Shown here: in pieces, positions 37,621 through 62,585 of the stretch
Numbering within the stretch: the first letter of the stretch is position 1
Layout: every line of letters starts with the position of its first letter
Assembly (NCBI GenBank): GCA_963716725.1
Contig: CAVQUB010000021.1
Coordinates: 352,001-416,000 of the forward strand
Source: an uncultured delta proteobacterium
Lineage (GTDB): Bacteria > Myxococcota_A > Polyangia > Polyangiales > Polyangiaceae
Reading direction: 5' to 3'
Length of the DNA: 64,000 nucleotides
The notes under the pieces: model-generated
Told to the model about the DNA's origin: nothing
Seen by the model: the letters and a program-made list of their open reading frames with translations, nothing else
The model's database searches: none
Translations under genes and position numbers: made by a program

Positions 37621-38693
37621 CCAGACGCGGGCCTTTTACGGCCTGCAGTTTCATCCGGAGGTGACCCACACGCGCCAGGGCGGGCGCATCCTCGAGCGTT
37701 TCCTGTTCGAGATCTGCGGCTGCGAGGCCTGTGGAATCCGCGCAGCATCATCGATGACGGCATCCAGCAGCATGCGCGAGCAGATCGGCGACGGCCGCGT
37801 GGTTCTCGGCCTGTCCGGCGGCGTCGATTCGTCGGTGGTGGCGGCGATGCTGCACCGGGCAGTCGGCGACCGACTGGTCTGCGTGTTCGTCGACAACGGC
37901 CTGCTGCGCCTGCACGAGGGCGACCAGGTGATGGCGACCTTCGCCGAGCACATGGGCGTTAATGTCATCCGGGTGAATGCCGAGGACCGCTTCCTCAAGG
38001 GCCTCAAGGGCGTGGCCGATCCGGAGCAGAAGCGCAAGATCATCGGCAACCTGTTCATCGATATCTTCGAGGAGGAGGCGGCCAAGCTCGAGGACGTGGC
38101 ACTTCCTGGCACAGGGCACCATCTACCCGGACGTGATCGAGTCGGCCGGCGCCGCATCGGGCAAGGCGCACGTGATCAAGTCGCATCACAATGTCGGCGG
38201 TCTGCCGGACTACATGAAACTCCAGCTGGTCGAGCCGCTGCGCGAGCTGTTCAAGGACGAGGTGCGGCGGATCGGCGTCGAGCTGGGCCTGCCCTCCGAG
38301 ATGATCTACCGCCATCCGTTCCCGGGCCCTGGGCTGGGCGTGCGCATCCTCGGCGAGGTGCAACAAGGAGTACGCCGACATGCTGCGCCGGGCGGATGCG
38401 ATCTTCATCGAGGAACTGCGCAAGGCCGATCTGTACGACGAGGTCAGCCAGGCCTTCGCGGTGTTTCTGCCGGTCAAGTCGGTCGGCGTGGTCGGTGACG
38501 CACGGCGCTACGAGTACGTGATCACGCTGCGCGCGGTGAAGACCGTCGATTTCATGACCGCGCAGCTTCGCCCATCTGCCGTTCGAGTTTCTCGAGCAGG
38601 TTTCGCAGCCGCATCATCAACGAGGTGAACGGCGTCTCGCGCGTGGCCTACGATATCTCGAGCAAGCCGCCGGCCACGATCGAGTGGGAGTGA
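37621..38693 (+). CDS. guaA: GMP synthase (glutamine-hydrolysing), 3' part, with several indels
   Basis: [55 protein letters not shown] and [10 protein letters not shown] are spread over several frames. Confidence 0.95.
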
Positions 38694-38845
38694 CCGGAAT
38701 TTTTAACACATTGATTTAAAACGATAAAATAAATCCAATTGATAATATAATCTGCATCGTCAATGGTATTTTTCATGGTATTTCCGAGTGCTGTAAGGCA
38801 GAAAGCAGCAATACCATGAGTGGCAGATTGGCGTAATCATGGTAT
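38676..38845 (+). repeat. att site 1 (attL-like): guaA core + right arm
   Basis: ACGATCGAGTGGGAGTGA; IHF-like TAACACATTGATT; AATGGTATTTTTCATGGTATT at 38762; ATACCATG-N19-CATGGTAT at 38811-38845. Confidence 0.9.
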
Positions 38846-38882: not shown

Positions 38883-38958
38883 ATGGCGTGATTTAGGGCT
38901 TTAAGCACGCCAAATATGACTATAATGTGGCGTGAATAAGTGCTAGAATCGCGCCATG
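38883..38958 (+). promoter_or_regulatory. Tandem TGGCGTG...CACGCCA inverted-repeat operators upstream of fic
   Basis: Two palindromes flank a TATAAT; the same arrangement recurs at ~63,586-63,661. Confidence 0.6.
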
Positions 38959-40102
38959 AAGTGGATATGGCAACAGCCCGACTGGCCAGATTTTCGCTAT
39001 GACAATCGCGCGCTCAATGATCGGGAACTTGAATTTCGCCTGAACTCAGAGCGCCTGGCGGGCAGCTTTGATGCGCTACCGATGGCGTCCCAAGAGGATG
39101 CCACGATTGACTTGATGCTTTCCGAGGCCATCAAAACCAGCGCCATTGAGGGCGAGGATCTGGACAGAGAGTCGGTCAGGTCATCGCTGCTCTCTTTAAT
39201 TACATCGGATACGCTACCGGACAACTCAGACCAGAAAGCTGCTGGGGCTGCATCGCTGCTGGTGGACGTTCGCAAGAACTGGCAAACATCCCTGACGCAT
39301 GACCTGCTGGGCAAGTGGCAGTCCATGGCTGTCCCGGAGCAGCGCTACACGTCTATTCTGCGTGGCGCATACCGCAACGATCCTTCACCGATGCAAATAG
39401 TGAGCGGGCCTTACGGGCGGGAAAAGGTTCACTATGAGGCCCCGCCAGCGACTCAGGTGCCTGATGAAATGGCGAAGGCTTATCGACTGGTACAACCAAA
39501 CCAGTCCTTTGAGCGGGGATAAGACAATACACGGGATCGCAAGAGCAGGTATTGCTCATCTCTGGTTCGAGGTGATTCACCCCTTCGATGATGGTAATGG
39601 TCGAGTCGGCAGGGCGATCGCTGACCATGCGCTTTCGCAGTCTCTCGGCTATCCAACCACGGCTTGTCTTGCCACGGCGATAGAGGGGGATAAAAAAACC
39701 TATTACCTGCAACTGGAGAAAGCGAGTCGTGGAAGCCTGGATGTTAACGTTTGGCTGGATTATTTCGCAGACACAATAATCAAGGCACAGGAAATTGCCA
39801 GGGAAGAAGTGGACTTTGTACTGGCCAAGACACGTTTCTACGAAGCCTATGGCGACCAGCTGAATGACCGGCAGGCCAGGATGGTATCGCGGGTATTCGC
39901 TGAAGGTCGAAAGGGCTTTGAAGGCGGAATAACGACTAAAAAATATGAAGCGATTACCAAGTGTCCCAATCGAACGGCCAGCCGTGATCTTTCTGACCTG
40001 GTTGCCAAGGGTATCATCATCCCGTTACCAGGTGGTGGCAGAACAACCCGATATGAGTTGACGATTGTTGAACCGGCTCAGTCTGGTCTGATGAGGAAAT
40101 GA
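38956..40102 (+). CDS. Fic family protein (DUF4172-like N-terminus, Fic motif, C-terminal HTH); frameshift near 39,480
   Basis: MKWIWQQPDWP; HPFDDGNGRVGR; TASRDLSDL; split over two ORFs. Confidence 0.85.
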
Positions 40103-40174
40103 TTTTCTTCGCTCTGGAGCGAGCGATTTTATCTGCACAAGCCTGAACGATTTAATGAATTTCCATTTTGTCCT

Positions 40175-41551
40175 ATGAACGTCGATACACTCAAAGAAAA
40201 ACTGGCTGATATCGATGCAGATACCTTGCGGAATTTTATATTCGACCTCTACCTCCGCTATCCGGAGTTGAGCGACAAGATCGAAGCATTGACATTGGCA
40301 AATGATCCGGTCGCCCTGTCCAGGGTGCTGCGCAAGCGTATTGCATCGCTGAAACGAGGGCGGAGGTTTATCGATTATCGGGCGAGTTTTGATTTTGCAC
40401 GCGAACTGGAAGCGACCCTCGCCGACATTGAAAGCGGACTGCTGGAGCGCTCACCGGAACATGCGTTTGATTTGGTCGACCGGTTCCTGGCGACGGCAGA
40501 ATCGGTGCTCAACCGTGTCGATGATTCTGGCGGGGCAGTGGGCGAGGTATATCGCCAAGCCGTACTGTTGTGGTTGACGGCGGCTAAAGGCTGGCGGGAT
40601 GCCAACGTCGACTGGCTCGAGCGGATATATCAGCTGTATCAGCAGAATGATTATGGTGTGCTTGATCCGCTATTGCCAAATGCCAACCTGCTGTTGACGC
40701 CGGATCAGCTGAAGCAACTTGCCTGGCGGTACGAAAACGCGTTGCGCAAGGCGTTAAAATCTCCCGAACAAGAAGACAAACTCAATCTCGTGGCCTTGCG
40801 TAGCGGCGTGGCATTAGGACAGATAGCCGATGCCTTGCGTGATCCTGCCTTATACGAGCGATCGGTATTGATACATTCGCCACAGCCAAACAATCTGCAA
40901 ATGAAATCGATTTGTGAAAAATATTTGCAGTATGAGCAGCCCGAGACGGCAATGCGTTATCTGAACCAGGCATGGGAGGACCGTTTTGAGCGTGATCGTC
41001 TGGAATTGCTGGATAAGGTCTGTGTGAAAACGGGTGACCGGAAACAGCTTAAAGTGATTCGTTCTCGGCTGTTTCAGAGCGAGCAGAGCTACCCCAGTTT
41101 CACGCGATATCTGGAGGCCTTGGACGAGGATGAGAAAGAGAAAGCGTGTAGCTCAGCAATCAAGCAAGCCGAACAGAGTGGCAATATCGTACTCAGCGCA
41201 GATCTGTTATTAAACCTGAGCCAGACGGAGAGAGCTCAGGCCTTAGTCTTAGCTCGGCATCAGGAGTTGGCGGAGTGTTTTTATGACAGTCTGCTGAGGC
41301 TGGCCAAGGCGTTTGAAAAAGCGGATTGCAATCTGGCGGCTACGGCGTGCTACCGCGCCTTGTTGCTGGATATCCTGGCACAGGCGCGCAGTAAGGCTTA
41401 CGGCCATGGTGCACGGTACTATAAAAAGCTGGAAGCGCTGGCGAAGCGGATCAAGGAATTCAAACCACTGCCAACACATCACGCCTTCGTGCAGCAATTG
41501 CACTCGGCGCATGGGCGAAAGAAAAGTTTTTGGGCGCGACTGGAATCATGA
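40175..41551 (+). CDS. All-helical hypothetical protein (DUF6880-like)
   Basis: RVDDSGG motif; C-terminal KAYGHGARY...HGRKKSFW. Confidence 0.7.
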   Translation: MNVDTLKEKLADIDADTLRNFIFDLYLRYPELSDKIEALTLANDPVALSRVLRKRIASLKRGRRFIDYRASFDFARELEATLADIESGLLERSPEHAFDLVDRFLATAESVLNRVDDSGGAVGEVYRQAVLLWLTAAKGWRDANVDWLERIYQLYQQNDYGVLDPLLPNANLLLTPDQLKQLAWRYENALRKALKSPEQEDKLNLVALRSGVALGQIADALRDPALYERSVLIHSPQPNNLQMKSICEKYLQYEQPETAMRYLNQAWEDRFERDRLELLDKVCVKTGDRKQLKVIRSRLFQSEQSYPSFTRYLEALDEDEKEKACSSAIKQAEQSGNIVLSADLLLNLSQTERAQALVLARHQELAECFYDSLLRLAKAFEKADCNLAATACYRALLLDILAQARSKAYGHGARYYKKLEALAKRIKEFKPLPTHHAFVQQLHSAHGRKKSFWARLES

Positions 41552-41616: not shown

Positions 41617-41717
41617 TTTCTGAACATGGTATTTTTCATGGTATTACCGATTAGCAGGAAAATAAGCCATTGAATATAAAAGATAAAAATGGCTCGTTTA
41701 CAATCGAGTGGGAGTGA
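41617..41717 (+). repeat. att site 2: left arm + core; right arm absent
   Basis: CATGGTATTTTTCATGGTATT at 41625; ACAATCGAGTGGGAGTGA at 41700-41717; no ATGGTAT boxes downstream. Confidence 0.9.
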
Positions 41718-41898
41718 CTGGCACTCGCAGGCAACTACAGGAACCAAAAGCACAAAAACTTGCGTAATTCATCAGTCGGCTGGAACTATCTCTGGAATAT
41801 CGGCGAGCGGAACAGAGGGTGACAGCCCCATCTTCCAAATCCTGACGTGGACGTCGGCGAAGCGTTTTGACGTCTGTAAGTGCGGATTTCTTGCTCAT
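41718..41898 (-). pseudogene. Decayed N-terminus of a ferritin-like/bacterioferritin gene
   Basis: MSKKSALTDVKTLRRRPRQDLEDGAVT...RLMN...CLR resembles the LTDV.TLR.RARQ..E.GAVT N-terminus of proteobacterial ferritin-like proteins. Confidence 0.5.
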
Positions 41899-42197: not shown

Positions 42198-43835
42198 CTA
42201 GCGGGCCAAAGCACGTGCAACTGCAATGGACGTGAGCGGGTGGTACTGCCCGAAATACATCGGCGGCGGCACCAGCGACGGTTTGACGAATTTTTTCACC
42301 GCCTGGATCGCGCCCAACACACTGTACTCCGTGGTGAACACAATCCCCTTGGGAATCTCTACAAACTGCCCAAGGAGCGCGAAGTTCTTTGAACCCGCCG
42401 GCACCACCGCGGGCCGGTCGCCCTTAGCTCTGCTGAGAAACTGGCTGGTGCTGTAGGGCAGCAGGCAAGGGATGCAGGTGGAGGTGTCGAGGATCTCATT
42501 TTTCTCCCCCTCGTCCTGGTCGAACTGCAGGTGACCCAACAACTCCTCCAGAATCTCGCGACCTGTGCACTCGGGCATGGTCTTCTTCACGAACGTGCCA
42601 ATGTTGTCGCCGCCTAGTGCCGTCACCCAGATGACGCACGTATCGCGGGGTTGGTCGGGGAACAGGGGCTGGCGGTACGTGTGCAGGTGCAGGATCCACG
42701 GGGACGCTGTGATGGGCAGCGGGCTCTGACGACCCATCTGGCGCTCCACCAACCACTCGAACTTGCGCTGGAACAATCCGCCGCGAAAGGTGACGGTGAA
42801 GGTCATCATCGTGGACTGCGAGATGTCGCGCAGGAACTGGTCGGGGCGGCCGAAGTCGGGCTGCTTGGCGGCAATCTTCTTCCACAGCGTCCACGCTCCG
42901 CCCAGGTTCTGGCTGCCGACCGCGGGCTTGTCCACCGGGCGGTCATGGGCACCGAACGAGGCGTTGCTGACGATGGAGCCGATGGTCAGGAAGACGAGGT
43001 CGGTGTCGCGCACCTGGATAGAGGGCTTTGCCTTGCCGCTCTCAGTCTCGAGGTGGATGCGCTCAATCCACCTCTCCTTGCCGCCGGAGTGCATTTTGAA
43101 GTCTACGTCTGAGATCCTGCAGTTGTAGTGGAAGTTCACGCCCTTCTTCTGCATGAAGCGCAGGGCGGGCAGTATAAAAGAATGGAAGTTGGTATAGCGA
43201 GTACGCTCCAAAGCGACCATCGTGTTCATGTTTGGCATCTCGTGAAAGAAGAGGTGCATGTAGCGCTTCATCTCGACCGCTGAATGCCACGGCTGGAAGG
43301 CAAAAAGTGCCCGCCACATGTACCAGTAATTGCTGGTGAAAAAGGCTTCTCCAAAGATGTCCGTAATCTTTGCACCGTCTGGAATCAAGAACTCTGGTGT
43401 GACCAGAAGTCTTGCCATCTTCAATTTTTCAGCAGTGTTGAGACCAAGTTGATATCCGGTGTCCTTCTTACCATTCTCATGCAGAAGGCGAACGACAGTG
43501 TGAACTCTGCATTCTTCACGGTTCTTCTGATGGTCTTGTAGACACGATTCATCATCGTTGTACGGAATAATGGACCACAGTTCTTTGGTGCAGGGATATA
43601 CCTTGTCTTCAAACATGCGACTGCCTTGCATAAAGTACGCCGGTTGGTCGTTCACTATCATCTCTGAGGCATCACAGCTTCCTCCAACAAGGTCCTTGTC
43701 GCCCTTTTGCTCAAAGATATGGATATTGGATGGATTAAAGTCTGCCTTCTGGATCAAATACATTGCAGCAGCAATGGAGCCCAAGCCGAGACCATTAAGA
43801 TAAACGTTGACGGAAGAATCTTCTTTGTTTTTCAT
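42198..43835 (-). CDS. Oleate hydratase (MCRA family), divergent
   Basis: GLGLGSIAAAMYL, FAFQPWHSAVE, GDRPAVVPAGSKNFALLGQFVE and FTTEYSV motifs. Confidence 0.85.
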   Translation of the reverse strand: MKNKEDSSVNVYLNGLGLGSIAAAMYLIQKADFNPSNIHIFEQKGDKDLVGGSCDASEMIVNDQPAYFMQGSRMFEDKVYPCTKELWSIIPYNDDESCLQDHQKNREECRVHTVVRLLHENGKKDTGYQLGLNTAEKLKMARLLVTPEFLIPDGAKITDIFGEAFFTSNYWYMWRALFAFQPWHSAVEMKRYMHLFFHEMPNMNTMVALERTRYTNFHSFILPALRFMQKKGVNFHYNCRISDVDFKMHSGGKERWIERIHLETESGKAKPSIQVRDTDLVFLTIGSIVSNASFGAHDRPVDKPAVGSQNLGGAWTLWKKIAAKQPDFGRPDQFLRDISQSTMMTFTVTFRGGLFQRKFEWLVERQMGRQSPLPITASPWILHLHTYRQPLFPDQPRDTCVIWVTALGGDNIGTFVKKTMPECTGREILEELLGHLQFDQDEGEKNEILDTSTCIPCLLPYSTSQFLSRAKGDRPAVVPAGSKNFALLGQFVEIPKGIVFTTEYSVLGAIQAVKKFVKPSLVPPPMYFGQYHPLTSIAVARALAR

Positions 43836-43903
43836 TTTGGTGTACCTTTCCTTTATTTATCCTTCTCGGTAAAAATCACAAGACTGACATTGAAGAAGCG
43901 TGG

Positions 43904-45673
43904 TCAATCGCCCGTGACAAGCCCGAACTCGCGCAGCAGTGCGCCGATCTGGGTCTTGTCAAGCTTGTTCATCAGCAGGTTACGCAGGAACGCAGGCCCC
44001 GGGACGTCGATCTCCTTGCCGTCGCGTAAGCGGCCGGTCGCACCCAGAAGCATGCGGATGTCGTAGGTGGAGTTGAAGACCTCCGGCACGCCACGCTCGA
44101 CGTCAAGCAAGGTATAGACAGCTTCCATCGGCGTTCGCACGGAATACTCAGTTGTGAAGATGCAGTCGCGCTCCCTGGACTCCGCGAACTGACCAATGAA
44201 GGCGAAGTTGACCGCGCCCTCGGGCACCACGTCTGGACGATCGCCAGCCTGGCGTGGCATGAAGAAGGCCGTCACGTACGGCATCATCACCGGAATGGTG
44301 ATGGCGCCGGTTGCGGCCAGCTCAGGGATGTCCTCGACCGGTACGCCCAGATGGTAGAGCCATTCCTGGGTGATTTCCTCGCCCGTGCAGTCCTGCATGG
44401 GCTTCTTCACGTAGTCACCCGGCTTCTCGACGAACAGCCCGTAAACCCACACCACGATCTGGTCCTTGGGCTGGGCCTTGAAGTGCGGCTGTCGGTTTAC
44501 CGTCCAACTGAGCAGCCAGGATGAGTCCCTCGCGGTCACGATGCCGCCAGTCACCACCTTGCCGCTGAACGGATCGCGCTTGGCGATCTTCTGGATGTAC
44601 TTCGGGATGCGCGCATCGAGCGTGGTGACGGTGGCCGACTCCCATTTGGTCTCGGGGATGTGCGCGCCGAACACCTCCGGGCGCCCGAACGCCGGATCCT
44701 TTGCGGCGATGCGCCGCCAAAGATCCCACGCCGGTGCAGGACCCACATTGAGATTTGGCGGTGTGTGGTGGTCGCCGTTGTCGGAGTTCTCGGTGAGCGA
44801 GCCGATGGTCATGAACACCAGGTCGTCCGGGCCAAGATCGACGCCGCCTTCAACGGCGTCCCTGCGCCAGTGGATGCGCTTGGCCTGTTTGCGTCCGGGT
44901 GCGATGTCGAAGTCGACATCGGTCACCTCGGTGCCGTAATGGAACACCACGCCGTGATCAAGCAGCCACTTAACCAGCGGCAGCACCAGCGATTCGTACT
45001 GGTTGTACTTGGTGAACTTCAGCGTGGAGAAGTCCGGCATGCCTTTGATTTGGTGTATGAAACGGTGCAGGTACAGCTTCATCTCCAGCGCCGAGTGCCA
45101 CTCCTCGAAGGCAAACATCGTGCGCCAGTACAGCCAGAAATTGCTGTTCAGGAATTCCTGACCGAACACCTCATTAATGCGCTTGTTCTCCATTTCTTCG
45201 CGGGTGGCCAGGAAGAGCTTGACGATCTCTTTTTGCGCCTGCTCGCTGAGCGTGAACAGGCCGTCGGTATGCGCGTCCTCGCCCCGATTCATGGTGGCGC
45301 GCTGCAAAGAGGAGTTCGGATCGTCCTTGTCGAGCCAATAGAACTCGTCGAGTACACTGGCACCCTCGATCTCCAGCGACGGGATTGACCGGTACAAATC
45401 CCACAGGCATTCGAAGTGCTCTTCCATCTCGCGCCCGCCCCGGATGACAAAGCCCTTCTCCGGCTCCTTGATGCCGTCCAGCGCGCCACCGGGCAAGTGT
45501 TGCTGCTCCAGGATGGTGATTTGCTTGCCGGGCATCTGACCGTCGCGGATCAGAAAGGCCGCGCCCGCCAGTGCCGCCAGACCCGAGCCGACGAACCAGG
45601 CCGTTTTGTTCTCTACGCCTTTGGGTTTGCGCGGGCGGGCGAACGCTTCGTAGTTGCCGTTGCTGTAGTACAT
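43904..45673 (-). CDS. ohyA: Oleate hydratase (myosin-cross-reactive antigen)
   Basis: MYYSNGNYEAFARP, GSGLA, RGGREME, KFTKYNQYES and FTTEYSVRT motifs. Confidence 0.92.
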   Translation of the reverse strand: MYYSNGNYEAFARPRKPKGVENKTAWFVGSGLAALAGAAFLIRDGQMPGKQITILEQQHLPGGALDGIKEPEKGFVIRGGREMEEHFECLWDLYRSIPSLEIEGASVLDEFYWLDKDDPNSSLQRATMNRGEDAHTDGLFTLSEQAQKEIVKLFLATREEMENKRINEVFGQEFLNSNFWLYWRTMFAFEEWHSALEMKLYLHRFIHQIKGMPDFSTLKFTKYNQYESLVLPLVKWLLDHGVVFHYGTEVTDVDFDIAPGRKQAKRIHWRRDAVEGGVDLGPDDLVFMTIGSLTENSDNGDHHTPPNLNVGPAPAWDLWRRIAAKDPAFGRPEVFGAHIPETKWESATVTTLDARIPKYIQKIAKRDPFSGKVVTGGIVTARDSSWLLSWTVNRQPHFKAQPKDQIVVWVYGLFVEKPGDYVKKPMQDCTGEEITQEWLYHLGVPVEDIPELAATGAITIPVMMPYVTAFFMPRQAGDRPDVVPEGAVNFAFIGQFAESRERDCIFTTEYSVRTPMEAVYTLLDVERGVPEVFNSTYDIRMLLGATGRLRDGKEIDVPGPAFLRNLLMNKLDKTQIGALLREFGLVTGD

Positions 45674-45899
45674 GGGGGACTCCCTTGGTTGAGGTTGCAG
45701 CGACAGCCGTGGCGCGCGGGGTCTGCTGCGTGTAGGCGATGGCACCGACGCGGCGCTTGAACTTCGCGCCGAAGTTGAGCCCGTCCTGCACATGACATGT
45801 GCGCGACAACTCTTTCGCAGCAAGTTTACGACCGAGCCTGCGTGTGCGTCTGTGCGGTGCCGTACGTCTTCAGCCAAGCTGGAGCGCAGGCTCTGGCCA

Positions 45900-47021: not shown

Positions 47022-47275
47022 TTTCTGAGCATGGTATTTCACATGGCACTAAGATACATGACCGATATTAACTACATGAAAATAATAGAAAATAATTGCT
47101 TATTTACCATCGAGTGGGAGTGACAGGAATTTTTAAAACATTGATATAAAACGATAAAATTAATCCAATTGATAATGTAATCTGCATCGTCAATGGTATT
47201 TTTCATGGTATTTCCGAGTGCTGTAAGGCAGAAAGCAGCAATACCATGAGTGGCAGATTGGCGCAATCATGGTAT
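47022..47275 (+). repeat. att site 3: left arm + core + right arm (attP-like junction)
   Basis: Core at 47109-47123; right side nearly identical to 38694-38892. Confidence 0.92.
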
Positions 47276-47384
47276 CAGCGGTCGGCACTCAGATATCGCC
47301 TTTTGAACGAGCGTGGCGTGATTATACTGGTGGGCACTGTTGATCACGGTGCCTACCCCCATTTCCGAAAGGCGTGTCCTTGTG

Positions 47385-48637
47385 TTATTTCAGTGCCTGC
47401 CAACCAGGTACGGCCTTGGTGAACTCTTCTTGAAATGCCGGACGTTTGATGTTGTCCTTTTTGACTTCGAGTGCGAAGTCACGCCAGCGAGATGGATCAC
47501 GCAGCACATCAACCAACACATGGTGGACCTTCTTCATTACCTGTGCCTTGCGGGTGTATTCCCTGCGCGTGGCGTTGGTCTTGAGGTTGCCCAGTCCTGA
47601 TATATAGTATTTTAATATTGCCTCGGGATACCTGCCTTCAAGACGCTTGGCGGTCTGCAGTTCATAGGCGCTGTCCCAAGCGTAGAGGGGGTAACGGCTT
47701 CGGGTCAGCACCGCCACCGCTTCCTCGTACTCCTTGCGGTGCATGCGGATACGAAGTTGCTCCGTGTCCCGGGCGTTTTCCAGCCGTGCAAGGATTTTCG
47801 CTTCGTAACACTTCCACTCAGTGACCGTGCATAGTTTCCCAAATGTCTTGTACTTGTCGCAGGTCAGAGAATCGATCGCCTGATCAAACTGTAGTGCCAG
47901 GTAGCGTTCACGATTGCCGGCGGATTTGACACGCTTGGCAACGAACTGACGCAATTCATCCATGCGGCCTTTTCCCTTGAGTAGTCCTGTTTCCGCGACC
48001 TCCATGGCCTTCTGTTTTTCACCGGCCTTCCAGTGGAAATCCGCCAAGTCGAAATAGTCGGTGCCAGTGGCCAGTTTACGCTGGCGCAGCTCGAGATATT
48101 TTCCACGGTCACCGAGGCGGCGATAAATGCGGCGGGCATGGTCGAGTTTCCAGTCCCCTCCCATGGTCTCGAAGGCTTGCGCCAGTGCGCGCCAATCGGC
48201 GTCGGTGTAACAGGCCGCATAGGCCAGGTCGTAGAGGTCGTCGTCAAGTCCAGCATTACCGCTTTCGATATAGGGCAGGGCATTGTCGAGAAGTTTTTGC
48301 CGGTAGTCTGAATCGATCTTTTTCGTGAAAGCCCCTGTGCGATCTCTTGCAACAGGCTCGAAGCATGGATGTCGGCATCATAATCGCCGCCACCGTATGC
48401 ATCCAGCTCGTCCAGATCTGGCGCGAGTTCGGCCCACAGGGCAAGCAGTTTTTCACTCTCGGACTGCTTCTTCCGACTGGGTGACAGGGCAGTATGCCTG
48501 TTCAGGTAGTCGAGGCACTCACGCCGGACATCGGGGCGTGAGGATGCCACGCGTACGATCAGATCGACCAGCTTTGCTTTCGGCGCGGTCTCCGGCAAAG
48601 CGGCCAGTGGATCATCCTGTTTACGTTTTCCCGCCAT
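47385..48637 (-). CDS. All-helical hypothetical protein, frameshift near 48,320
   Basis: ORFs 47864..48637 and 47385..48164 join into one protein ending ...W...VKKDNIKRPAFQEEF. Confidence 0.6.
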
Positions 48638-48646
48638 AACGAACTG

Positions 48647-49670
48647 TTACCTGGGAAGCTGAAATTGAACGATCTGGTCCAGTAACGGCAAGGCCTTTAC
48701 CCGGTACTCGTGACACAGGAGCTCGTCGGAAACCGGCTCCACCGTCGCTAAACCCATAAAGTCTGCGAAATGCACCAGCGAACGCCAGGTGTAACCGCGA
48801 CGCATTGTCTCATCGGGGGAAATTACCTGGCTCGGTGGCACTTCATCCAATAGCCGCGGAAAGGCGCCCAGGAAGGCATTTTCATAAAATGCCTGCGGTC
48901 GCCAGGCGTCACCGTAGCGGGTGAGCAGGCAAAGTGTGAACAGGAAGGCGCTCTGCATGAATCTCAACTCAGGATAGCCGTCTCTGTGTGCCCAGTTGAA
49001 CTGTTCGACATAGGCCCTGAACAATTTGGGGTAGATGGCAGTCATGCCGTCCCCTGCCTGCAGCTGGCGACAATCGCGGCTGAGGATAAATCGGCCCTTG
49101 TATTTGCGAATCAACCCCGCCAGTTCGGCCACAAGCCGGGTGACATGCAGATCGTCAAAATCCTCCTCCCGATTGATGCCGCCATATCGGGTCCGCTCCT
49201 GATATTTCTCTTTACCCAAGTAGGTCAGGGCGGCCTCGCGGCAGAAGTTGCGCGGCAGATTGCCCTTGGCGGTCGGTTTGAGGCCCTGCTCGCCGATGGC
49301 GTCGGTCAATAGCTCGAACAGGGTCAGTATTGGCGCGACCGGGTTGCTGTGGAGCACCTCCGGAAAACGGACCAGCCCCTGTGATGCGAACGGAAAATTC
49401 AGTATCCGGTGCATCTGCTCGGGCGATAAACCGTGAAACTCGTCCAGCTGCCGACGGTTTTGCTGTTGGGTAATCTGGTCTAGAAATGCCTGGGGACTCT
49501 TGCAGCGAGTTGAATTGCCGGCCTTCGAATGTTTCGCGCAAGGCTTCGGAAGTGCTTACCGCGTCAGGGTTGGATGCCGTGCTGTTCTCCTTGCCCAGGC
49601 AGCAGTGCTTGAATTTCTTTCCGCTGCCGCAAGGGCACGGATCATTGCGTCCGATGCCTGGTGTTTTTAT
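48647..49670 (-). pseudogene. SEC-C motif protein, frameshifted, start codon apparently ATA
   Basis: [23 protein letters not shown] near 49,600-49,665; frameshift near 49,495; continues into [11 protein letters not shown]. Confidence 0.65.
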
Positions 49671-50842
49671 ATCACGATCTGCACAGAGTCGATTTCATGC
49701 CACGATAGTACAGTGACATCGGAACGTGTCTGTCGACTGTCGCCGCCGTAAACCAGCCATGCCTGTCCGGCGGTTCCGCCTGCCAGATTTTGCCAGAACT
49801 CCAGCCCTTTGAAGTAATCCTTGTTGATGGTTTGCCCAGATTTGATTTCCAGCGGTGACAGATGGGTTCCGTGGTCAATCAGCAGATCCACCTCGTGTCC
49901 CGAACGATCACGCCAGAAGTAGAGGTTCGAGGTTTCGCCTGCGTTATAACGGGCCTTAAGCAATTCACTGATAACCCAGGTTTCAAACAAGGCACCCCGT
50001 TGAACGTGGGTAGCCAATTGCTCGTTGTTTTGGATGCCGAGGAGCCAGGTGGCAAGACCCGTATCCAGAAAATAGAGTTTGGGTGTTTTGACTAAACGCT
50101 TGTTGAAATTCTGGTGATGCGGTGGCAACAGATGCACGATATAACTGGCTTCCAGTACGGATATCCAGGCTTTGGCTGTGTTGTGTGTAATGCCACAGTC
50201 ATTGGCCAGCGAGGAAAGATTGAGGAGTTGTCCGGTCCGGCCCGCGCACAATTTTAGAAAGCGTTGAAATGTGCCCAGATCCTGTACCTTGATCAATTGC
50301 CGGACGTCTCGTTCCAGGTAAGTGCGCACATAGTTTCCATACCAGGGGTGCGGTTCGAGTCCGCGGTCGAAGATGGGGGGATACGCCCCATCAAAGAGTA
50401 TCTTGTCGACGCTCTTGCCAATTTTTCCTGAGCCTTGTAACTCGCCGTAGGTCATGGGTAACAGCGTCAACAATGCGGCTCTGCCTGCCAGACTCTGCGT
50501 GATGCCTGTTAACAGACCAAACTGCTGAGATCCCGTCAGAATAAATTCGCCGGGTTGTTGCCTTTCATCGACGCGTGTCTGTAGATAGGAAAACAGGGCA
50601 GGGCAGCGTTGCGCCTCGTCCAGGATGGCGCCCCCACTGAATTGATTCAAAAAACCACGCGGATCCGTTTCTGCAAATTCCCTTTGGTCGAGATCTTCGA
50701 GTGATACATAACGGTGGTCGGGAAAGGCATGCCTCACCAGAGTGGACTTGCCAGACTGGCGTGGACCTGTGACCACAACCACTGGATAGCCGCTGGCGAA
50801 GTGTTGAAGTCTGGATTCTGCGTTCCGGGGGATGTAGGTCAC
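49667..50842 (-). CDS. AAA_14 ATPase with DUF4143 (PD-(D/E)XK-like) C-terminus
   Basis: [27 protein letters not shown] and EVDLL...LEIK motifs. Confidence 0.9.
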
Positions 50843-50886
50843 GGTGGTTTCTGGTTGCTTTACACGCCTGTATTATGAGAGATAAT

Positions 50887-50917: not shown

Positions 50918-50936
50918 TATATTGCGCCTGGTACGT

Positions 50937-51053: not shown

Positions 51054-51307
51054 TTTCTGAGCATGGTATTTTTCATGGTATTACCAATGAGCAGGAGAAT
51101 AAGCAATTGAATATAAAAGATAAAAATGGCCTGTTTACAATCGAGTGGGAGTGACTGGGATTTTTAACCTATTGATTATTAAAAATAAAAAAGATCTAAT
51201 TTATAATATAATCCGCATCATCAATGGCATATTTCATGGTATTTGTTCCGTGTGGCAAGGCAGAACACATCGATACCATGATAATAAAATTGAGTTTGGC
51301 ATGGTAT
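51054..51307 (+). repeat. att site 4: left arm + core + right arm
   Basis: Core at 51140-51154; arm boxes at 51062, 51223, 51273 and 51300. Confidence 0.92.
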
Positions 51308-51334
51308 CAGGGCAATCGAGCGGCGTATTCGTAA

Positions 51335-52473: not shown

Positions 52474-55191
52474 ATGAAACCCTTGCTGGAAAAACACTGG
52501 CACCACCTGCCTCGGGACGAGGTGCTGGACCTGCTCGACACCGATGCGAAGAAAGGCCTGGACCGTTTCGAGGTCGAGGAGCGACAGCAGAACTTCGGTC
52601 CCAACGTTCTGACGCAGCGCAAGGGCAAGGGGCCACTGCTGCGTTTCCTGCTGCAGTTTCACCAGGCGCTGGTCTATATCCTGCTGGCCGCGGTCGTGAT
52701 CAAACTCATGCTGGGCGCCTGGGTGGATGCCAGCGTGATTTTCGGCGTGGTCCTGCTCAATTCCATCATCGGCTTCGTGCAGGAGGGCAAGGCCCTGAGC
52801 GCACTGGCGGCGCTGGCAAGCGCGCTGACCACGGCTGCCACTGTGGTGCGCGCCGGCGAGAAGCATCGCATAGACGCCCGTGAACTGGTGCCCGGCGATA
52901 TTGTTTTACTGGCCTCCGGCGACAAGGTACCGGCGGACCTGCGCCTGCTGCACGACCGTAACCTGCAGATCGACGAATCCGCCTTGACCGGCGAGTCAGT
53001 GCCGGTGGAGAAGTGTTTGGGCGAACTGGCCCACGACGCCGTGCTGGCGGAGCGCGCCAACATGGCCTATTCCTCCACCCTGGTGACCTATGGCACCGGG
53101 GTCGGCGTAGTCACCGAAACCGGCGACAGCACCGAGATCGGCCGCATCTCAGAACTGATCGCCGGCGCCGAAGTGTTGGCCACGCCGCTGACCCGCAAGA
53201 TTGCCCGCTTCAGTCACGTACTGCTCTATGCGATTATCGTGCTGGCAGGCCTGACCTTCGCCGTAGGCCTGTGGCACGGGGGCTCGGCGGTGGACATGTT
53301 TATGGCCGCCGTAGCGATGGCTGTCGCCATGATCCCGGAAGGACTACCCGCCGTCCTTACCATCACCCTGGCCATCGGTGTAGCACGCATGGCCAAACGC
53401 CATGCCATCATCCGCCATCTACCTGCAGTCGAGACCCTCGGCAGCACAACCGTGATCTGCTCGGACAAGACCGGCACCCTGACCCGCAACGAGATGACAG
53501 TGCAGCGTCTCTGGGCGGGTAACAAAATGGTCGAGGTCACCGGCGTGGGTAACACGCCGCAAGGCGAACTGTCGCAAAATGGCCAGGCGCTGGCGCTCAG
53601 CGATCACACTGCCCTATCGGAATTGCTACGTGCTGGCCTGCTATGCAACGACGCAGTGCTCAAGCAGGAGAATGGCGCCTGGAAGATAGAAGGTGACCCC
53701 ACCGAAGCTGCACTGCTGGTCGCGGCCGGCAAGGCCGGGGTCGATGCGGAAAAAACACATGAAGCCTACCCCAGACTCGATGCAATTCCCTTCGAGTCAC
53801 AGCACCAGTACATGGCCACCCTGCATGGCGGTGACAAACCGGTTATCTATCTCAAGGGCTCGGTCGAGAGCCTGCTTGCACGCTGTGCCGATGTCCTGAG
53901 CGCCGACGGTGAGAGCCGGCCGCTGGACACTGCCGAGGTGCATGCCCAGGTCGAGGCAATGGCGCGTCAGGGCATGCGGGTGCTGGCATTCGCCCGTCTC
54001 AATGTTCAACCGGATACCACAGCAGTCGATCACCCACAGGTTGAGGGCGGCCTCACCTTTATCGGGCTGCAGGGCATGATCGATCCACCACGCGAGGAGG
54101 CCATCCTCGCAGTCAAAGAATGTCAATCGGCAGGCATCCAGGTCAAGATGATCACTGGTGATCACGCCACAACGGCGGCAGCCATCGCGGGTCAGATCGG
54201 TTTGGGCGGCCCGCTGCCAGATGGCGAGGTCCCGGACGTGCTAACCGGTAGTGAACTGGCGGCGCTGAGCGACGCCGAACTTATAGACGCTGCCGCCGAT
54301 ATCGAGGTGTTCGCCCGCGTTACGCCGGAACAGAAGCTGCGCCTGGTGGAAGCCCTGCAAGCACGCGGCGAGGTGGCGGCCATGACCGGCGACGGGGTCA
54401 ACGATGCCCCGGCCCTGCGCCGCGCTGATATCGGCGTGGCCATGGGCATCAACGGTACCGAGGTGTCGAAGGAGGCCGCCGACATGATACTTACCGACGA
54501 CAACTTTGCCACCATCGGAGCGGCGGTGGAGGAAGGCCGTGGTGTATTCGCCAATCTAACCAAGTTCATCACCTGGATCCTGCCGACCAACGCCGGCCAG
54601 GGACTGGTGATTATCGTCGCGGTGATGGCGGCCCAGCCGTTGCCGGTATTGCCGGTGCAGGCGCTATGGATCAACATGACGACCGCCGTGCTGCTCGGCC
54701 TAGCCCTGGCCTTCGAGCCCAGGGAGCCGGGCATTATGCGGCGCCCGCCGCGCCGGCCGGATGTGCCTATCCTCGGCGGTGAACTGATTGTCCGCATCCT
54801 GCTGGTGGGTCTGCTGCTGCTGATCGGCGGCTTCGGTCTGTTCGAATGGGCCCTGTACCGGGGCGCCAGCGAAGACGAGGCGCGCACTATCGCGGTCAAT
54901 GTGTTTGCCGTGGGGCAGTCCTTCTACCTGCTCAACTGCCGCTCGCTGCGCTTTTCGATGTTTCGCCTCGGTTTGTTCAGCAACCCGTGGATCTGGGCCG
55001 GTATCGCCGCCATGATAGTGGCGCAACTCCTGTTCACCTATCTGCCGGTGATGAACTGGCTGTTCCATACCGCGCCAATCGGCTGGATGGACTGGCTGCA
55101 CATCGTGTTGGTCGGACTGGTGATCTATCTGGCCATCGGTGCGGAAAAGGCGTGGCGGCTGCGGCGTGAGGCGGGTGACAGTGAAACATGA
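52474..55191 (+). CDS. Cation-transporting P-type ATPase
   Basis: TGES, IPEGLP, CSDKTGTLT and MTGDGVND motifs. Confidence 0.95.
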   Translation: MKPLLEKHWHHLPRDEVLDLLDTDAKKGLDRFEVEERQQNFGPNVLTQRKGKGPLLRFLLQFHQALVYILLAAVVIKLMLGAWVDASVIFGVVLLNSIIGFVQEGKALSALAALASALTTAATVVRAGEKHRIDARELVPGDIVLLASGDKVPADLRLLHDRNLQIDESALTGESVPVEKCLGELAHDAVLAERANMAYSSTLVTYGTGVGVVTETGDSTEIGRISELIAGAEVLATPLTRKIARFSHVLLYAIIVLAGLTFAVGLWHGGSAVDMFMAAVAMAVAMIPEGLPAVLTITLAIGVARMAKRHAIIRHLPAVETLGSTTVICSDKTGTLTRNEMTVQRLWAGNKMVEVTGVGNTPQGELSQNGQALALSDHTALSELLRAGLLCNDAVLKQENGAWKIEGDPTEAALLVAAGKAGVDAEKTHEAYPRLDAIPFESQHQYMATLHGGDKPVIYLKGSVESLLARCADVLSADGESRPLDTAEVHAQVEAMARQGMRVLAFARLNVQPDTTAVDHPQVEGGLTFIGLQGMIDPPREEAILAVKECQSAGIQVKMITGDHATTAAAIAGQIGLGGPLPDGEVPDVLTGSELAALSDAELIDAAADIEVFARVTPEQKLRLVEALQARGEVAAMTGDGVNDAPALRRADIGVAMGINGTEVSKEAADMILTDDNFATIGAAVEEGRGVFANLTKFITWILPTNAGQGLVIIVAVMAAQPLPVLPVQALWINMTTAVLLGLALAFEPREPGIMRRPPRRPDVPILGGELIVRILLVGLLLLIGGFGLFEWALYRGASEDEARTIAVNVFAVGQSFYLLNCRSLRFSMFRLGLFSNPWIWAGIAAMIVAQLLFTYLPVMNWLFHTAPIGWMDWLHIVLVGLVIYLAIGAEKAWRLRREAGDSET

Positions 55192-55321
55192 AATGGTCCT
55201 GGACACTAAGCTGCCTGTCCGCGGTCATCAACGACCAAAGGATTTCAAAGCGGGTCGCGCGACATGGCGAGGTGATGGAGTTTAGGAAAGACAACAAGTT
55301 TGTTGAAAAGGTAACTGATAG

Positions 55322-55501
55322 ATGAATGAGAATCCCATCTTAATATCAGACCCGTCCGTTATGGACTGGGTAGTCGGACTCATGCTTCCAGCTGGTCTTG
55401 GGATTGTAGGTGCCATAGTGGTATGGCGCACCGCCCGAATGCTCAAGCGCTTAAGCAGAAAATCGAATCGGAAAGGAAGGTCGTCTGGAGAGAAGCCATG
55501 A
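55322..55501 (+). CDS. Possible small single-TM protein
   Basis: MNENPILISDPSVMDWVVGLMLPAGLGIVGAIVVWRTARMLKRLSRK...: hydrophobic helix followed by a basic tail. Confidence 0.35.
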   Translation: MNENPILISDPSVMDWVVGLMLPAGLGIVGAIVVWRTARMLKRLSRKSNRKGRSSGEKP

Positions 55502-55559
55502 GAAATCAGCAATGCGCGTCGCGGCGATCGATATTAGCTCTGTGGGATTGGCGATGGAA

Positions 55560-55747
55560 ATTATGTGCCGTTCATCGAACGGTTCTTTGACACCCGGACG
55601 GTGGACTTCGTACATGGCGTGGAAATCATTGCGCTGGGCATGGCGCTTTTTATGATTCTTGAACTGGAAAAACTCGCACTGCGCAAGTGGCGCAGGAAGC
55701 ACGATGGCCGCCACGGCAGTGCAGGGCGGAGCGAGGCCAAATCATGA
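55560..55747 (+). pseudogene. C-terminal remnant of another P-type ATPase
   Basis: YVPFIERFFDTRTV...GMALFMILELEK parallels YLPVMNWLFHTAPI...GLVIYLAIGAEK of the upstream ATPase. Confidence 0.55.
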
Positions 55748-57411
55748 CGGTGTTCCCGGACGTGTTCACTGAGATGGCGGTGCTGCTGCTGTTTGCCGCG
55801 GCGGTGGGTGCTCTGGGCGTACGCCTGCGCCAGCCCTTGATCGTCGCCTTTATCGCTGTGGGAATAATGGTTGGCCCGTCGGTGCTCGGTTGGGTCAGTG
55901 CGAACGACAAGGTCGATTTGCTGGCAAAGTTCGGGATCACGCTGCTGCTGTTCGTCGTTGGCTTGAAACTGGACCTGCACATTATCCGCACCATGGGGCC
56001 GGTCGCCCTGGCGACGGGACTCGGCCAGGTGATATTCACCAGCGTCGTCGGCTACCTGATCGGTTACGCCTTTGGCATGACGCCGGTCACGGCCCTGTAT
56101 GTAGCGGTCGCGTTGACATTCTCCAGCACCATCATCATCGTCAAATTGCTTTCCGACAAACGCGAGGTGGATACGCTGCACGGTCGAATCGCCCTGGGTT
56201 TCCTGATCGTGCAGGATCTGGTCGTCGTGTTGGTCATGATTGGCCTGAATGCCCTGGGTGCCAGCGGTGATGTCTCGTGGACCCAAGCGGCATTCGCCGT
56301 ACTAGTCAAGGGTGTGGGGTTTCTTCTGCTGGTCGGGTTGGCGATGCGGTACCTGCTACCGCGGCTGCTCCACATGCTGTCACGCTCCCAGGAATTGCTG
56401 GTGTTGTTCGGCATTGCCTGGGGATTAGCCTTGGCGGCCCTTGGGGTGACGCTCGGTTTCAGCAAGGAGGTGGGTGCCTTTGTCGCCGGCGTGTCACTGG
56501 CCTCCACGCCTTACCGGGACGCCCTCGGCGCGCGCCTGACGAGCGTGCGCGACTTTCTGTTGCTGTTCTTCTTTCTCGACCTGGGGGCGCAACTCGACCT
56601 GGGGCTGCTGGGTGCCCAACTGGTGGAGTCGCTGGTGTTCTCGCTGTTCGTCCTGATCGGTAATCCCCTCATCGTCATGGTCATCATGGGCGTACTGGGT
56701 TATCGCAGTCGTACCGGGTTCCTGGCCGGGCTCACGGTGGCGCAGATCAGCGAATTCTCCTTGATCCTGGGGGCGCTGGGTCTGAGCCTCGGCCACATAA
56801 GCGCCGAGACCATGGGCCTGATAACCCTGGTCGGGTTGATCACCATCAGCGCCTCTACGTACATGATCATCTATTCTCATCCGCTGTATGAGCGCCTGGC
56901 GCCCTGGCTCGGGGTCTTCGAGCGCCGACAGCCTCATCGGGAGGCCGTGCAGGATAGCGTGCCGGATGATGCGGTGCCATTGGTCGTGTTGTTCGGGCTG
57001 GGGCGTTACGGCAACGGCATCGCCCGGACGTTGCGTGAAAGGGGCTGGCGGGTGCTCGGCGTCGATTTCAACCCGGACCTGGTTCGCGCGGGAGACGCCA
57101 CGGGACACCCGGTCATGTTCGGAGATGCCGAAGATCCCGAGTACATCGCAACGTTGCCGCTTGGACGAACACATTGGGTAGTGAGTACAGCGCGTGAACG
57201 CCACGTCAATCTATCGCTTATCCACTCGCTGCGCAGTCTCGGTTACAGCCGCCGGATCGCTATTACGGTGCAATCGCCGGATGACGCGGCCAGACTGGAA
57301 CATGCGGGCGCCGATCTGATTCTGGTGCCGTATGCGGACGCCGCCCGCGAGGCGGCTGATCGTATCATGGGGCCGGGATATGAGCCGCAACCGTTACAGG
57401 AGGCGCAATGA
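55744..57411 (+). CDS. CPA2 cation:proton antiporter with TrkA-N domain (Kef-like)
   Basis: Multi-TM; QISEFS; GLGRYG...GDAED motifs. Confidence 0.9.
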   Translation: MTVFPDVFTEMAVLLLFAAAVGALGVRLRQPLIVAFIAVGIMVGPSVLGWVSANDKVDLLAKFGITLLLFVVGLKLDLHIIRTMGPVALATGLGQVIFTSVVGYLIGYAFGMTPVTALYVAVALTFSSTIIIVKLLSDKREVDTLHGRIALGFLIVQDLVVVLVMIGLNALGASGDVSWTQAAFAVLVKGVGFLLLVGLAMRYLLPRLLHMLSRSQELLVLFGIAWGLALAALGVTLGFSKEVGAFVAGVSLASTPYRDALGARLTSVRDFLLLFFFLDLGAQLDLGLLGAQLVESLVFSLFVLIGNPLIVMVIMGVLGYRSRTGFLAGLTVAQISEFSLILGALGLSLGHISAETMGLITLVGLITISASTYMIIYSHPLYERLAPWLGVFERRQPHREAVQDSVPDDAVPLVVLFGLGRYGNGIARTLRERGWRVLGVDFNPDLVRAGDATGHPVMFGDAEDPEYIATLPLGRTHWVVSTARERHVNLSLIHSLRSLGYSRRIAITVQSPDDAARLEHAGADLILVPYADAAREAADRIMGPGYEPQPLQEAQ

Positions 57412-57432
57412 TTCTGAACCGGGAGGGAGCAT

Positions 57433-57939
57433 ATGAATAAGACGGATCAAGGTCTTGATTGGTCGACGGTCGTGTCGCGGGCGCTGCTGTTCTCAATCAT
57501 GTGGTGGGCGCTCACCGATGGTACGGCCGGGTCCTTGTGGATCGGTGTGCCGGCGGTGATATGTGCGACGGTCGTCAGTGTGGCGCTGGTACCGCCGTTA
57601 GGTCTTGTCTGGAGGGAAGTGATGGGATTTGTACCCTTCTTCCTTTGGCATTCGCTGAAAGGGGGCGTGGATGTGGCGTGGCGGGCGTTTCATCCGCGTC
57701 TGCCAATCACGCCGGAACTTATTGAGTACCCGCTTCGACTGCCGCCAGGCCTGCCAAGGGTGATCCTGGTCAATACGGTGAGCTTGCTGCCGGGTACGCT
57801 AAGCGCGGAACTGGGTGGCCAAGTATTGAAGGCTCATGTATTGGATAGTCTGGGAGACTTTCTGGCTGAACTGGAGACTTTGGAACAACGCGTGGGGTGC
57901 ATGTTTAGAAGCGCCTCTGATGATTTCCCGCGGAGGTGA
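57433..57939 (+). CDS. mnhE: Mrp/Mnh Na+/H+ antiporter subunit E
   Basis: GGVDVAWRAFHP...NTVSLLPGTLS...HVLD. Confidence 0.85.
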   Translation: MNKTDQGLDWSTVVSRALLFSIMWWALTDGTAGSLWIGVPAVICATVVSVALVPPLGLVWREVMGFVPFFLWHSLKGGVDVAWRAFHPRLPITPELIEYPLRLPPGLPRVILVNTVSLLPGTLSAELGGQVLKAHVLDSLGDFLAELETLEQRVGCMFRSASDDFPRR

Positions 57940-58928: not shown

Positions 58929-58934
58929 TCGGGC

Positions 58935-59660: not shown

Positions 59661-59838
59661 TGTGTTTCGGAAAGTCGTTCATCTGGCAGAAGGCATCGAT
59701 AATGAAACACCCGTTCGCACCACACTGCTGCTCTACAAGGCGAAAACCTTGCACGGTGTCGGGCTTCTGGCGTGATCCTTTGAGCCTGTTCGACTTTACC
59801 GTTATGGCGATCGCGCAATCCGACGCGGGGCGAGCTCG

Positions 59839-62523: not shown

Positions 62524-62557
62524 TCTGTACTGTTGCGTTATGTGGGTATTGCATAAG

Positions 62558-62573
62558 GTAACATAAATGCTAC
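62558..62573. promoter_or_regulatory. Palindromic operator of the TA operon
   Basis: GTAACAT-aa-ATGCTAC just upstream of the toxin start. Confidence 0.45.
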
Positions 62574-62585
62574 TATATAGGTCAT

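Follow-up and report, generated by a model that had tools for sequence, protein, structure and literature searches.

What are the short repeated boxes that recur, at almost base-exact distances, along a 64,000-nucleotide (nt) stretch from an uncultured delta proteobacterium? The stretch (contig CAVQUB010000021.1, here C21, positions 352001-416000; hereafter the window) contains five copies of a core sequence matching the end of guaA, each with boxes on one or both sides, and the series continues past the window. We consider it likely that these are attachment (att) sites of the guaA-targeting GIsul2 family, separating integrase-less cassettes that accreted one behind another, and that the boxes would act as arm-type sites of the integrase while boxes resembling those of integration host factor (IHF) would bend the DNA.

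Box geometry and its conservation within the array

All distances were counted from the A of the core ATC. The core ATCGAGTGGGAGT is present in all five window sites, at 38679, 41703, 47109, 51140 and 63380. The window contains 18 copies of the box CATGGTAT where 0.42 would be expected, and none of 100 shuffles gave as many; the 21-nt pair of boxes occurs seven times with at most three mismatches against an expectation of 0. The first-pass annotation had proposed that these boxes keep near base-exact distances from the core, and when we recounted the positions the same values were obtained: the left pair starts at -78, -79, -78 and -78 in sites 2, 3, 4 and 5, and the right pair at +83 (second box at +95) in sites 1, 3, 4 and 5. 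The inverted pair that it placed behind the right pair in the latter four sites, ATACCATG-N19-CATGGTAT, was confirmed at +132/+159 in sites 1 and 3 and at +133/+160 in sites 4 and 5. Its IHF-like boxes between core and arms are also real; TAACACATTGATT at 38704 lies at +25 of site 1, and matches to YAANNNNTTGAW across the array fall at -40/-39 and +25 only.

Site 3 (stretch 47022-47275) illustrates the arrangement together with its decay. Its core reads ATCGAGTGGGAGTGA at 47109, a left box CATGGTAT starts at 47030, and the right side carries AATGGTAT/CATGGTAT at 47192/47204, ATACCATG at 47241 and CATGGTAT at 47268. The left pair claimed for this site stands for its first box; the second, 12 nt past 47030, is degenerate (CATGGCAC), and the left IHF-like box is absent.

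The five window sites of the earlier description hold, and the total had to be corrected to 12 att sites across 55 kb of C21, running to the contig end. Further cores or core remnants lie at C21 416931, 424921, 429190, 436940, 443405 and 445097, with a core-less site at 438074. Beyond the window the left pair starts at -77 to -80 and the right pair at +83, except for +82 where one base of the core is lost and for +85 in site 7. N19 separates the inverted box from the last box in 9/9 array sites having both, boxes with one mismatch being counted, and every box is kept with at most one mismatch each in site 1 (the attL) and in sites 4, 5, 6 and 9. In the array, as in the other genomes described below, repeated boxes occupy both arms and IHF-consensus boxes keep a fixed spacing to the core, which is the arrangement of a lambda-type site. 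The window sites and the guaA remnant, where P and P′ denote the left and right arms, are as follows.

37589..38693, forward strand: guaA remnant (three-frame translation, GMP_synt_C split over two frames, homology to other loci)
38679..38845, forward strand: site 1, attL type; core 38679-38693, IHF-like box 38704-38716; P′ direct pair 38762-38769 / 38774-38781, inverted box 38811-38818, last box 38838-38845
41625..41760, forward strand: site 2; P pair 41625-41632 / 41637-41644, IHF-like box 41663-41674, core 41703-41717; right side a TGGCA-repeat segment resembling the CR2 end of GIsul2 attLR, with no ATGGTAT boxes
47030..47275, forward strand: site 3; P box 47030-47037, degenerate second box 47042-47049, core 47109-47123, IHF-like box 47134-47146; P′ pair 47192-47199 / 47204-47211, inverted box 47241-47248, last box 47268-47275
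51062..51307, forward strand: site 4, complete P-core-P′ junction; P pair 51062/51074, IHF-like box at -40, core 51140-51154; IHF-like box 51165-51177, P′ pair 51223/51235, inverted box 51273-51280, last box 51300-51307
63302..63547, forward strand: site 5, complete P-core-P′ junction; core 63380, a variant ending GGGAGTAG

No tRNA gene was found in the window, and the search of window 36000-64000 against Rfam gave zero families at gathering score, so the repeat is not a known RNA.

We then compared the P′ arms with each other, using the complete and non-near-duplicate sites 1, 4, 5, 6, 9 and 11 and leaving aside site 3 (96% identical to site 1) and sites 2, 7, 8, 10 and 12 (arms incomplete). 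The six arms show pairwise identities of 0.61-0.72 overall. Their four boxes are 0.95 identical, against 0.51 for the distal spacers together with the 27 nt beyond, and the core-proximal segment from +15 to +82 shows 0.70. The distal spacers thus drift at constant length while the boxes are kept, and the core-proximal segment is also constrained. The earlier claim that spacer sequences differ while their lengths hold is therefore correct for the distal spacers but not for the segment between core and right pair. A simple recent duplication, in which spacers would be as conserved as boxes, is seen only for sites 1 and 3, whose P′ arms form a recent duplicate pair. Selection for an intasome architecture, as first proposed, is supported by the gap between 0.95 and 0.51 and by the occupation of the same positions, within 1 nt, elsewhere; held spacing with diverged distal spacers fits such selection.

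Homology to GIsul2 and recurrence in other genomes

Since the core corresponds to the guaA end (...PPATIEWE, stop), the last GMP synthase codons are repeated at each site. At site 1, where the core contains GAGTGGGA, ATCGAGTGGGAGT(GA/AG) after ...PPAT gives IEWE and the stop, as at a guaA 3′ end. When the arms were compared with plasmid records, the P arm and core of site 4 (~113 nt) proved about 90% identical to a sul2-proximal segment in 3,939 records. In the record examined the match adjoins sul2 and the IS91-like ISVsa3 transposase, and the matched segment is the end on the sul2 side of both GIsul2 and the CR2-sul2 unit. The array arms are homologous to both GIsul2 attR and attLR. In the attR on the plasmid of A. 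baumannii ATCC 17978, the pair CATGGTATTTTTCATGGTATT stands 78 nt ahead of ATAGAGTGGG, and the attLR before rcr2 shows the pair, the core and TGGCA-type repeats that are common to sites 2 and 8. Upstream of GIsul2 int we identified by eye a degenerate pair, N30, ATACCATG, N19 and CATGGTAT. The P′ arm gave only seven weak, chance-level matches (E >=0.04) in the plasmid records, and the short P′ type is not on the plasmids searched; in the phage collection the site arms matched seven records, all through the sul2-side P arm. According to the accessible part of Zhang et al. 2022 (PMC9376610), the GIsul2 integrase excises and integrates both GIsul2 and the integrase-less CR2-sul2 via 19-bp cores sharing GAGTGGGA, and two CR2-sul2 units were found accreted at attR in Aeromonas; the words 'arm' and 'IHF' are absent from the text.

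In order to follow the right-arm module into other genomes, one genome per species was scanned with the pattern ATGGTAT-N(20-34)-ATACCATG-N19-CATGGTAT. The P′ module was present in at least 129 stretches, and at least 78 loci (given L numbers) were retrieved, mostly from gammaproteobacterial metagenome-assembled genomes (MAGs) of marine and sediment origin; the remaining loci came from some Beta- and Alphaproteobacteria. Because three of the four P′ boxes are set by the pattern, so that their conservation in the retrieved loci arises by construction, only pattern-free features were used as evidence. All counts in this paragraph and the next refer to the matches listed. The pattern permitted 15 module lengths, and among 79 distinct arms the length is 72 nt in 69, 71 in six, 73 in three and 76 in one. 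The first right-pair box lies exactly 12 nt before the second; 26 sites have a box at +84 and 26 have one at +96, and the rarer offsets likewise come in matching pairs.

P arms are absent from the scan pattern. Enough left flank was available for 85 distinct core sites; 41 of them read as a guaA end and 44 do not, and 35 of these 44 flanks contain the exact left pair with its 12-nt spacing. Its ATGGYAT starts at -77 in 27 cases, -78 in six, -79 in one and -75 in one; among the other non-guaA flanks, a single exact box at -64 to -66 is seen in five and none in four. In the consensus of 45 non-redundant P arms, whose mean ungapped identity is 0.55, the parts retained are the pair, TAAGccATTGA and the last 20 nt ahead of the core. 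Among 79 sites of other genomes, an IHF-like box lies at -40 in 31 and at +25 in 31, with no other position occurring three or more times. Since this geometry recurs in at least 78 loci of other Proteobacteria, its conservation is selective rather than a product of recent duplication, sites 1 and 3 excepted, and this selection was most likely exerted in other hosts, as the cassettes moved between them.

By the distance between GAGTGGGA and the second right-pair box, three classes of arm were distinguished, namely 93 nt (the array studied here), 152-154 nt and 158 nt. The longer classes carry TGGCA repeats where the short class has the IHF-like segment. Four to six copies of (C/T)TGGCA(C/A/T) fill the core-proximal part of the longer P′ arms (L022, L028, L038 and others), and the repeats are also found at window 41718-41760 and in GIsul2 attLR (L001:13205-13290), where they overlap the published CR2 terIS. 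They could be an array of sites for a recombination directionality factor (AlpA) or of core-type sites for the integrase.

A full-length integrase, 82-91% identical to GIsul2 Int, begins 94-96 nt after the module in at least 12 loci (12 of the 78 listed). Where the distance is given, in 11/11 integrase-linked modules (L061 excluded), the module belongs to the 152-154 class and lies directly at guaA. Integrase fragments were found in three of the other listed loci and none in 63, some of which end a few hundred bases from the arm. The GIsul2 integrase consists of Arm-DNA-bind_3, Phage_int_M and Phage_integrase domains. As a separate observation, a fifth CATGGTAT box lies 24 nt before the GIsul2 int start codon (L012:6300-6380; also L022, L028 and other int-bearing loci), which suggests that the integrase regulates its own promoter through an arm box.

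Cassettes, integrase and the present state of the array

The genes between the window sites are listed below.

38956..41551, forward strand: cassette 1 cargo; Fic/DUF4172 gene as two open reading frames (ORFs), DUF6880 gene (Pfam)
42198..45877, reverse strand: cargo of the interval from site 2 to site 3; two genes of the MCRA (oleate hydratase-like) family (Pfam)
47385..50842, reverse strand: cassette 3 cargo; AAA_14/DUF4143 ATPase (PADLOC PDC-S01) and three ORFs without Pfam family
52474..63241, forward strand: cassette 4 cargo; two P-type cation ATPases, Na+/H+ exchanger with TrkA_N (Pfam), MnhE-like, Usp, Gp49-like toxin, small partner ORF
63659..64000, forward strand: start of the next cassette (Fic/DUF4172), the array going on past the window

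In a Pfam search of the 24 window ORFs and 27 ORFs in the rest of the array, integrase, relaxase and conjugation genes were all absent. The array units are thus flanked by att sites and lack integration and transfer genes, as in cis-mobilisable elements (CIMEs). What they carry is diverse: Fic/DUF4172 with DUF6880, two MCRA hydratases, AAA_14/DUF4143 ATPases, P-type ATPases, an Na+/H+ exchanger, Usp, Gp49-like and HigB toxins, a ResIII helicase, a DruA-transposase fusion, IS66, ZnuA/ABC-3, PLD, a beta-lactamase-fold protein, arsR-arsC-acr3, OprB and mannitol dehydrogenase. Whole cassettes recur at 88-98% identity in arrays of other genomes. Cassette 1 (C21 390955-393718) is 98.3% identical over 2,765 nt to a cassette of L018/L019 and 95.9% to L076-L078, cassette 3 matches L077/L078 at 95.6% identity over 3,728 nt and L060 at 91% over 4,312 nt, and parts of cassettes 4, 5 and 11 recur at 79-94% in other loci. 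The guaA genes of cassette-sharing hosts are only 68-88% identical to the remnant, so that the same units in different hosts and array positions form the pattern expected of mobile cassettes.

Other array loci were examined with Pfam through 48 of their 89 ORFs (each of at least 230 aa, in 9 of 13 array loci). Their order is guaB-guaA-attL-cassettes, the cargo includes Fic/DUF6880, AAA_14/DUF4143, HipA, AbiEii, helicase, IS91-type and OprB proteins, and no integrase was found among the 48 ORFs. In public sequencing data, 20 runs of 10 studies match part of 46000-52000, all as short contigs, and cassette-like pieces 92-100% alike were found in contigs of sediment, soil and sludge runs. None of these short contigs convincingly bridges a cassette boundary or spans the junction at 37.6 kb described below; the sides of the joints listed measure 20-41 nt and lie inside repeated boxes.

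Several features of the cargo are worth recording. The Fic/DUF4172 gene of cassette 1 (window 38956-40102) consists of two overlapping ORFs of 188 and 222 aa, while its relatives are single ORFs of 381-391 aa, and metagenome contigs differ from it by one base at 39474-39477. The AAA_14/DUF4143 ATPases at window 49667-50842 and L002:11610-12848 match PDC-S01 (E 1e-108 and 2e-166), and the DUF6880 protein has a weak PDC-S62 match. Much of the cargo of arrays elsewhere is toxin-antitoxin or defence-like (HipA, AbiEii, TOTE primase-helicase, SNF2). A cassette at L002:6839-8920 contains arsR-arsC-acr3, 72% identical in DNA to the GIsul2 arsenic module, beside higB and an HTH gene, and so parts of the GIsul2 backbone, too, are in circulation as units lacking an integrase. 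In an uncultured gammaproteobacterium, one array locus contains a gene of the class A beta-lactamase family (L017:11328-12326).

Based on these observations, we propose the following mechanism. Site 1 would be an attL, composed of guaA end, core and P′ arm, and the other sites attP-like P-core-P′ junctions that would have arisen by successive integration of circular elements at an existing att site (accretion). Each unit would then consist of a P′ arm, cargo and a P arm, and, being without integrase, would be a cis-mobilisable cassette like the published CR2-sul2. By analogy, the ATGGTAT boxes are predicted to bind the N-terminal Arm-DNA-bind_3 domain of a GIsul2-type, P4-like integrase, and the boxes at -40 and +25 to bind IHF, so that the arms would be bent back to the core. 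Strand exchange would take place inside GAGTGGGA, and the fixed distances would reflect the geometry of the intasome. An excised unit would form a circle with one P-core-P′ site, able to enter attB or any resident att, and the integrase would be supplied in trans by a GIsul2-type element such as stands first after guaA in at least 12 loci. With no integrase detected in the assembly, the array is currently an orphan.

Here, we need to consider the points that weigh against this reading. Besides the boxes fixed by the scan pattern, the two assignments of binding proteins have analogy as their basis. No PF00589 match lies on C21, all 19 of the genome being on other contigs. In the source assembly, which is 84% complete, a sequence search with GIsul2 Int gave 0 matches, tblastn gave a best hit of E=0.44, and PF13356 (Arm-DNA-bind_3) had 0 matches; a cognate integrase combining Arm-DNA-bind_3 and Phage_integrase was thus not found, although 84% completeness leaves its absence unproven. 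A close GIsul2 Int homologue was found in 0 of 5 other array-bearing genomes, the best being 31% identical. Among 100 relatives, of which 60 belong to the same family and 6 to the same genus, 0 have the pattern of P arm and core, and they thus gave nothing for comparison. At site 1 the last ~1.1 kb of guaA is left, with the first ~500 nt missing and at least four frame changes. Finally, 7 of the 12 array sites are defective: site 3 has the degenerate second left box, site 7 has lost 12 nt corresponding to one right-pair box, site 10 has lost its core, the core of site 11 is short by 1 nt, and the right sides of sites 2, 8 and 12 are without ATGGTAT boxes. The negative integrase searches count against present activity, and the integrase may be unassembled or transient, or the arrays may be relics.

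One such defect has a recognisable form. At C21:438040-438160 (L002:6040-6160) left-arm context is joined to right-arm context via a single ATGGTAT pair, the core and about 160 nt being removed at this 438074 site, which looks like the result of homologous recombination between two direct pairs. A similar fused arm form was seen in one contig from public run X1.

The alternative that survives best, to which we give a little under an even chance, holds that the sites are inert scars, imported en bloc or decayed, with a geometry that derives from functional attP sites of the donor pool and is under no selection in the source genome. It accounts for the missing cognate integrase, for the damage to seven of 12 sites (fused pairs with the core deleted, a 1-nt core deletion, a lost 12-nt box), for the split Fic gene that is single in its relatives, and for a 5′-truncated, frameshifted guaA whose best match, at 88%, is the guaA of a gammaproteobacterial MAG. 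On the other hand, the attL and sites 4, 5, 6 and 9 keep every box, most cargo ORFs are intact, and an integrase-bearing element may lie beyond the assembled sequence, since the assembly is incomplete and the contig ends in low-GC island DNA. This alternative concerns present activity only and leaves the identity of the boxes undisputed. The first-pass conclusion that the sites are functional is accordingly supported only in part here, as the integrase was not found, most sites are damaged and guaA is truncated and frameshifted.

The position of the array raises a second possibility. Window GC falls from about 0.68 to 0.46-0.65, and C21 ends 3.3 kb beyond the last site in DNA still of 0.44-0.60 GC, compared with ~0.68 for the host. 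Upstream of the remnant, an ORF for a GMC oxidoreductase, whose C-terminal domain was not found, is broken at ~37.6 kb (window 35973-38693), and the homology of the remnant to other loci begins at 37589-37634, its best match being 88% nt identity to L018. A second guaA-like gene of 617 aa, more divergent and with a weaker GMP_synt_C match, lies on contig C20 without arms. The break at 37.6 kb may be genuine, the result of a deletion or an insertion, or else a chimeric join. That assembly or binning wrongly joined a gammaproteobacterial guaA-array segment to a contig of 68% GC seems unlikely to us. Such an artefact would explain why the GMC oxidoreductase and guaA are both cut at about the same point, why GC drops and the array stands at a contig end, why guaA (88%) and cassette 1 (98%) best match one MAG, and why the pattern is missing from the 100 relatives. 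However, the remnant needs several frame changes while long cargo ORFs are intact, which fits a real pseudogene better than a clean chimeric join; the public-run contigs are short, with none across the junction; and the nature of the sites is the same either way. From the junction and the shared best match of guaA and cassette 1, the data suggest that the array arrived together with a piece of donor guaA. It was probably built in a gammaproteobacterial donor, or imported with the guaA fragment from one.

That the ATGGTAT boxes are bound by another protein of the element, an AlpA-type directionality factor or a RepA/RepC-type initiator acting on iterons, is very improbable: direct repeats of 12-nt period do resemble iterons or Xis sites, GIsul2 encodes AlpA, RepA and RepC, and the TGGCA repeats of the integrase-linked arm class likewise have no assigned binder, but the boxes lie on both sides of the core, direct and inverted, at fixed distances as in an arm-type pattern, they are kept in cassettes encoding none of these proteins, the cognate integrase has an arm-binding domain, and the module stands directly upstream of int in at least 12 loci.

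Returning to att sites of the GIsul2 family, we tentatively put forward a broader view, which we hold to be possible and no stronger than that: a pan-proteobacterial pool of integrase-less cassettes, each owning a complete lambda-type attP divided into P′ arm, cargo and P arm, that stack behind guaA and are shuffled by a single, only transiently present integrase of GIsul2 type, highly conserved at 82-91% identity across classes. Identical cassettes in different positions and hosts, and the lack of a close integrase homologue in all six array-bearing genomes (the source genome and the five others), are compatible with it. If true, this would be integron-like gene capture on a complex att site without a resident integrase, and CR2-sul2 would be one cassette of the pool. 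The GIsul2 integrase system spreads sul2, and the resistance genes riding with CR2-sul2, in clinical bacteria, and its att sites have so far been described only as a 19-bp core. The many diverged sites give an arm map of two arm pairs, an inverted pair, two IHF-like boxes and three core-to-arm distance classes. The same sites also flank the cassettes of a large environmental pool, whose toxin-antitoxin, defence-like, ion-transport and arsenic-resistance units recur nearly unchanged in bacteria of sediment, soil and sludge, and this bears on the origin of units like CR2-sul2. What merits further study is the arm map, together with the pool of shared cassettes.

Comparison with known systems

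In phage lambda attP, repeated integrase arm-type boxes occupy the arms on either side of the core, together with IHF-consensus boxes, and the distances are fixed. The array sites differ from it in the integrase type, which is P4-like, in the sequence and layout of the boxes, and in that the attP is owned by cassettes not encoding the integrase. Integron arrays also gather promoter-poor, integrase-less cassettes, each with a recombination site, at one chromosomal locus. An integron reading was rejected because IntI and attI are absent and no tyrosine recombinase lies on C21, and because the sites are double-stranded arm/core sites of ~250 nt homologous to GIsul2 att rather than attC hairpins.

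The closest relatives are GIsul2 and CR2-sul2 themselves. Like the array, they have the guaA 3′ end as target, the core GAGTGGGA and integrase-less units bounded by att sites, with a P arm about 90% identical and the same P′ module of pair, N30, inverted box, N19 and box. Unlike GIsul2, the array is without integrase, alpA, rep, trb, sul2 and rcr2 and has 12 sites in a row, and most of its P′ arms are shorter, with the pair at +83 rather than about +143 and an IHF-like box in place of TGGCA repeats. According to the accessible parts of the sources, the PIMEs, BcenGI2 and an IncP island share with the array the attB beside guaA and have int-alpA modules related to GIsul2, but they are complete integrative and mobilisable elements (IMEs) with an integrase (bioRxiv 10.64898/2026.01.12.698999; PMC5704250). 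In the accessible part of the preprint on guaA-targeting IMEs, the words 'tandem' and 'arm' occur 0 times each (bioRxiv 10.64898/2026.01.12.698999). Our literature search found no paper joining GIsul2 and arm-type sites, and the titles and opening lines of abstracts on guaA, accretion and integrase concerned mostly streptococci and a general IME review, with none on the system of the array. The mechanism is thus known in kind, whereas we found no printed account of the arm architecture or of the widely shared cassette pool.

CIME accretion, as described in the accessible part of PMC5704250, is likewise comparable, in that attL and attR are kept, integration and transfer genes are lost, and elements stack in tandem at a resident att. 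The cases described there are mostly streptococcal, usually with one CIME beside an integrative and conjugative element or an IME (PMC5704250). In the array, by contrast, the stack comprises at least 11 units and an intact partner element is nowhere in view, and its units are 88-98% identical in unrelated hosts. Based on these comparisons, the array is the recombination system of GIsul2 and CR2-sul2 combined with accretion of the CIME type.

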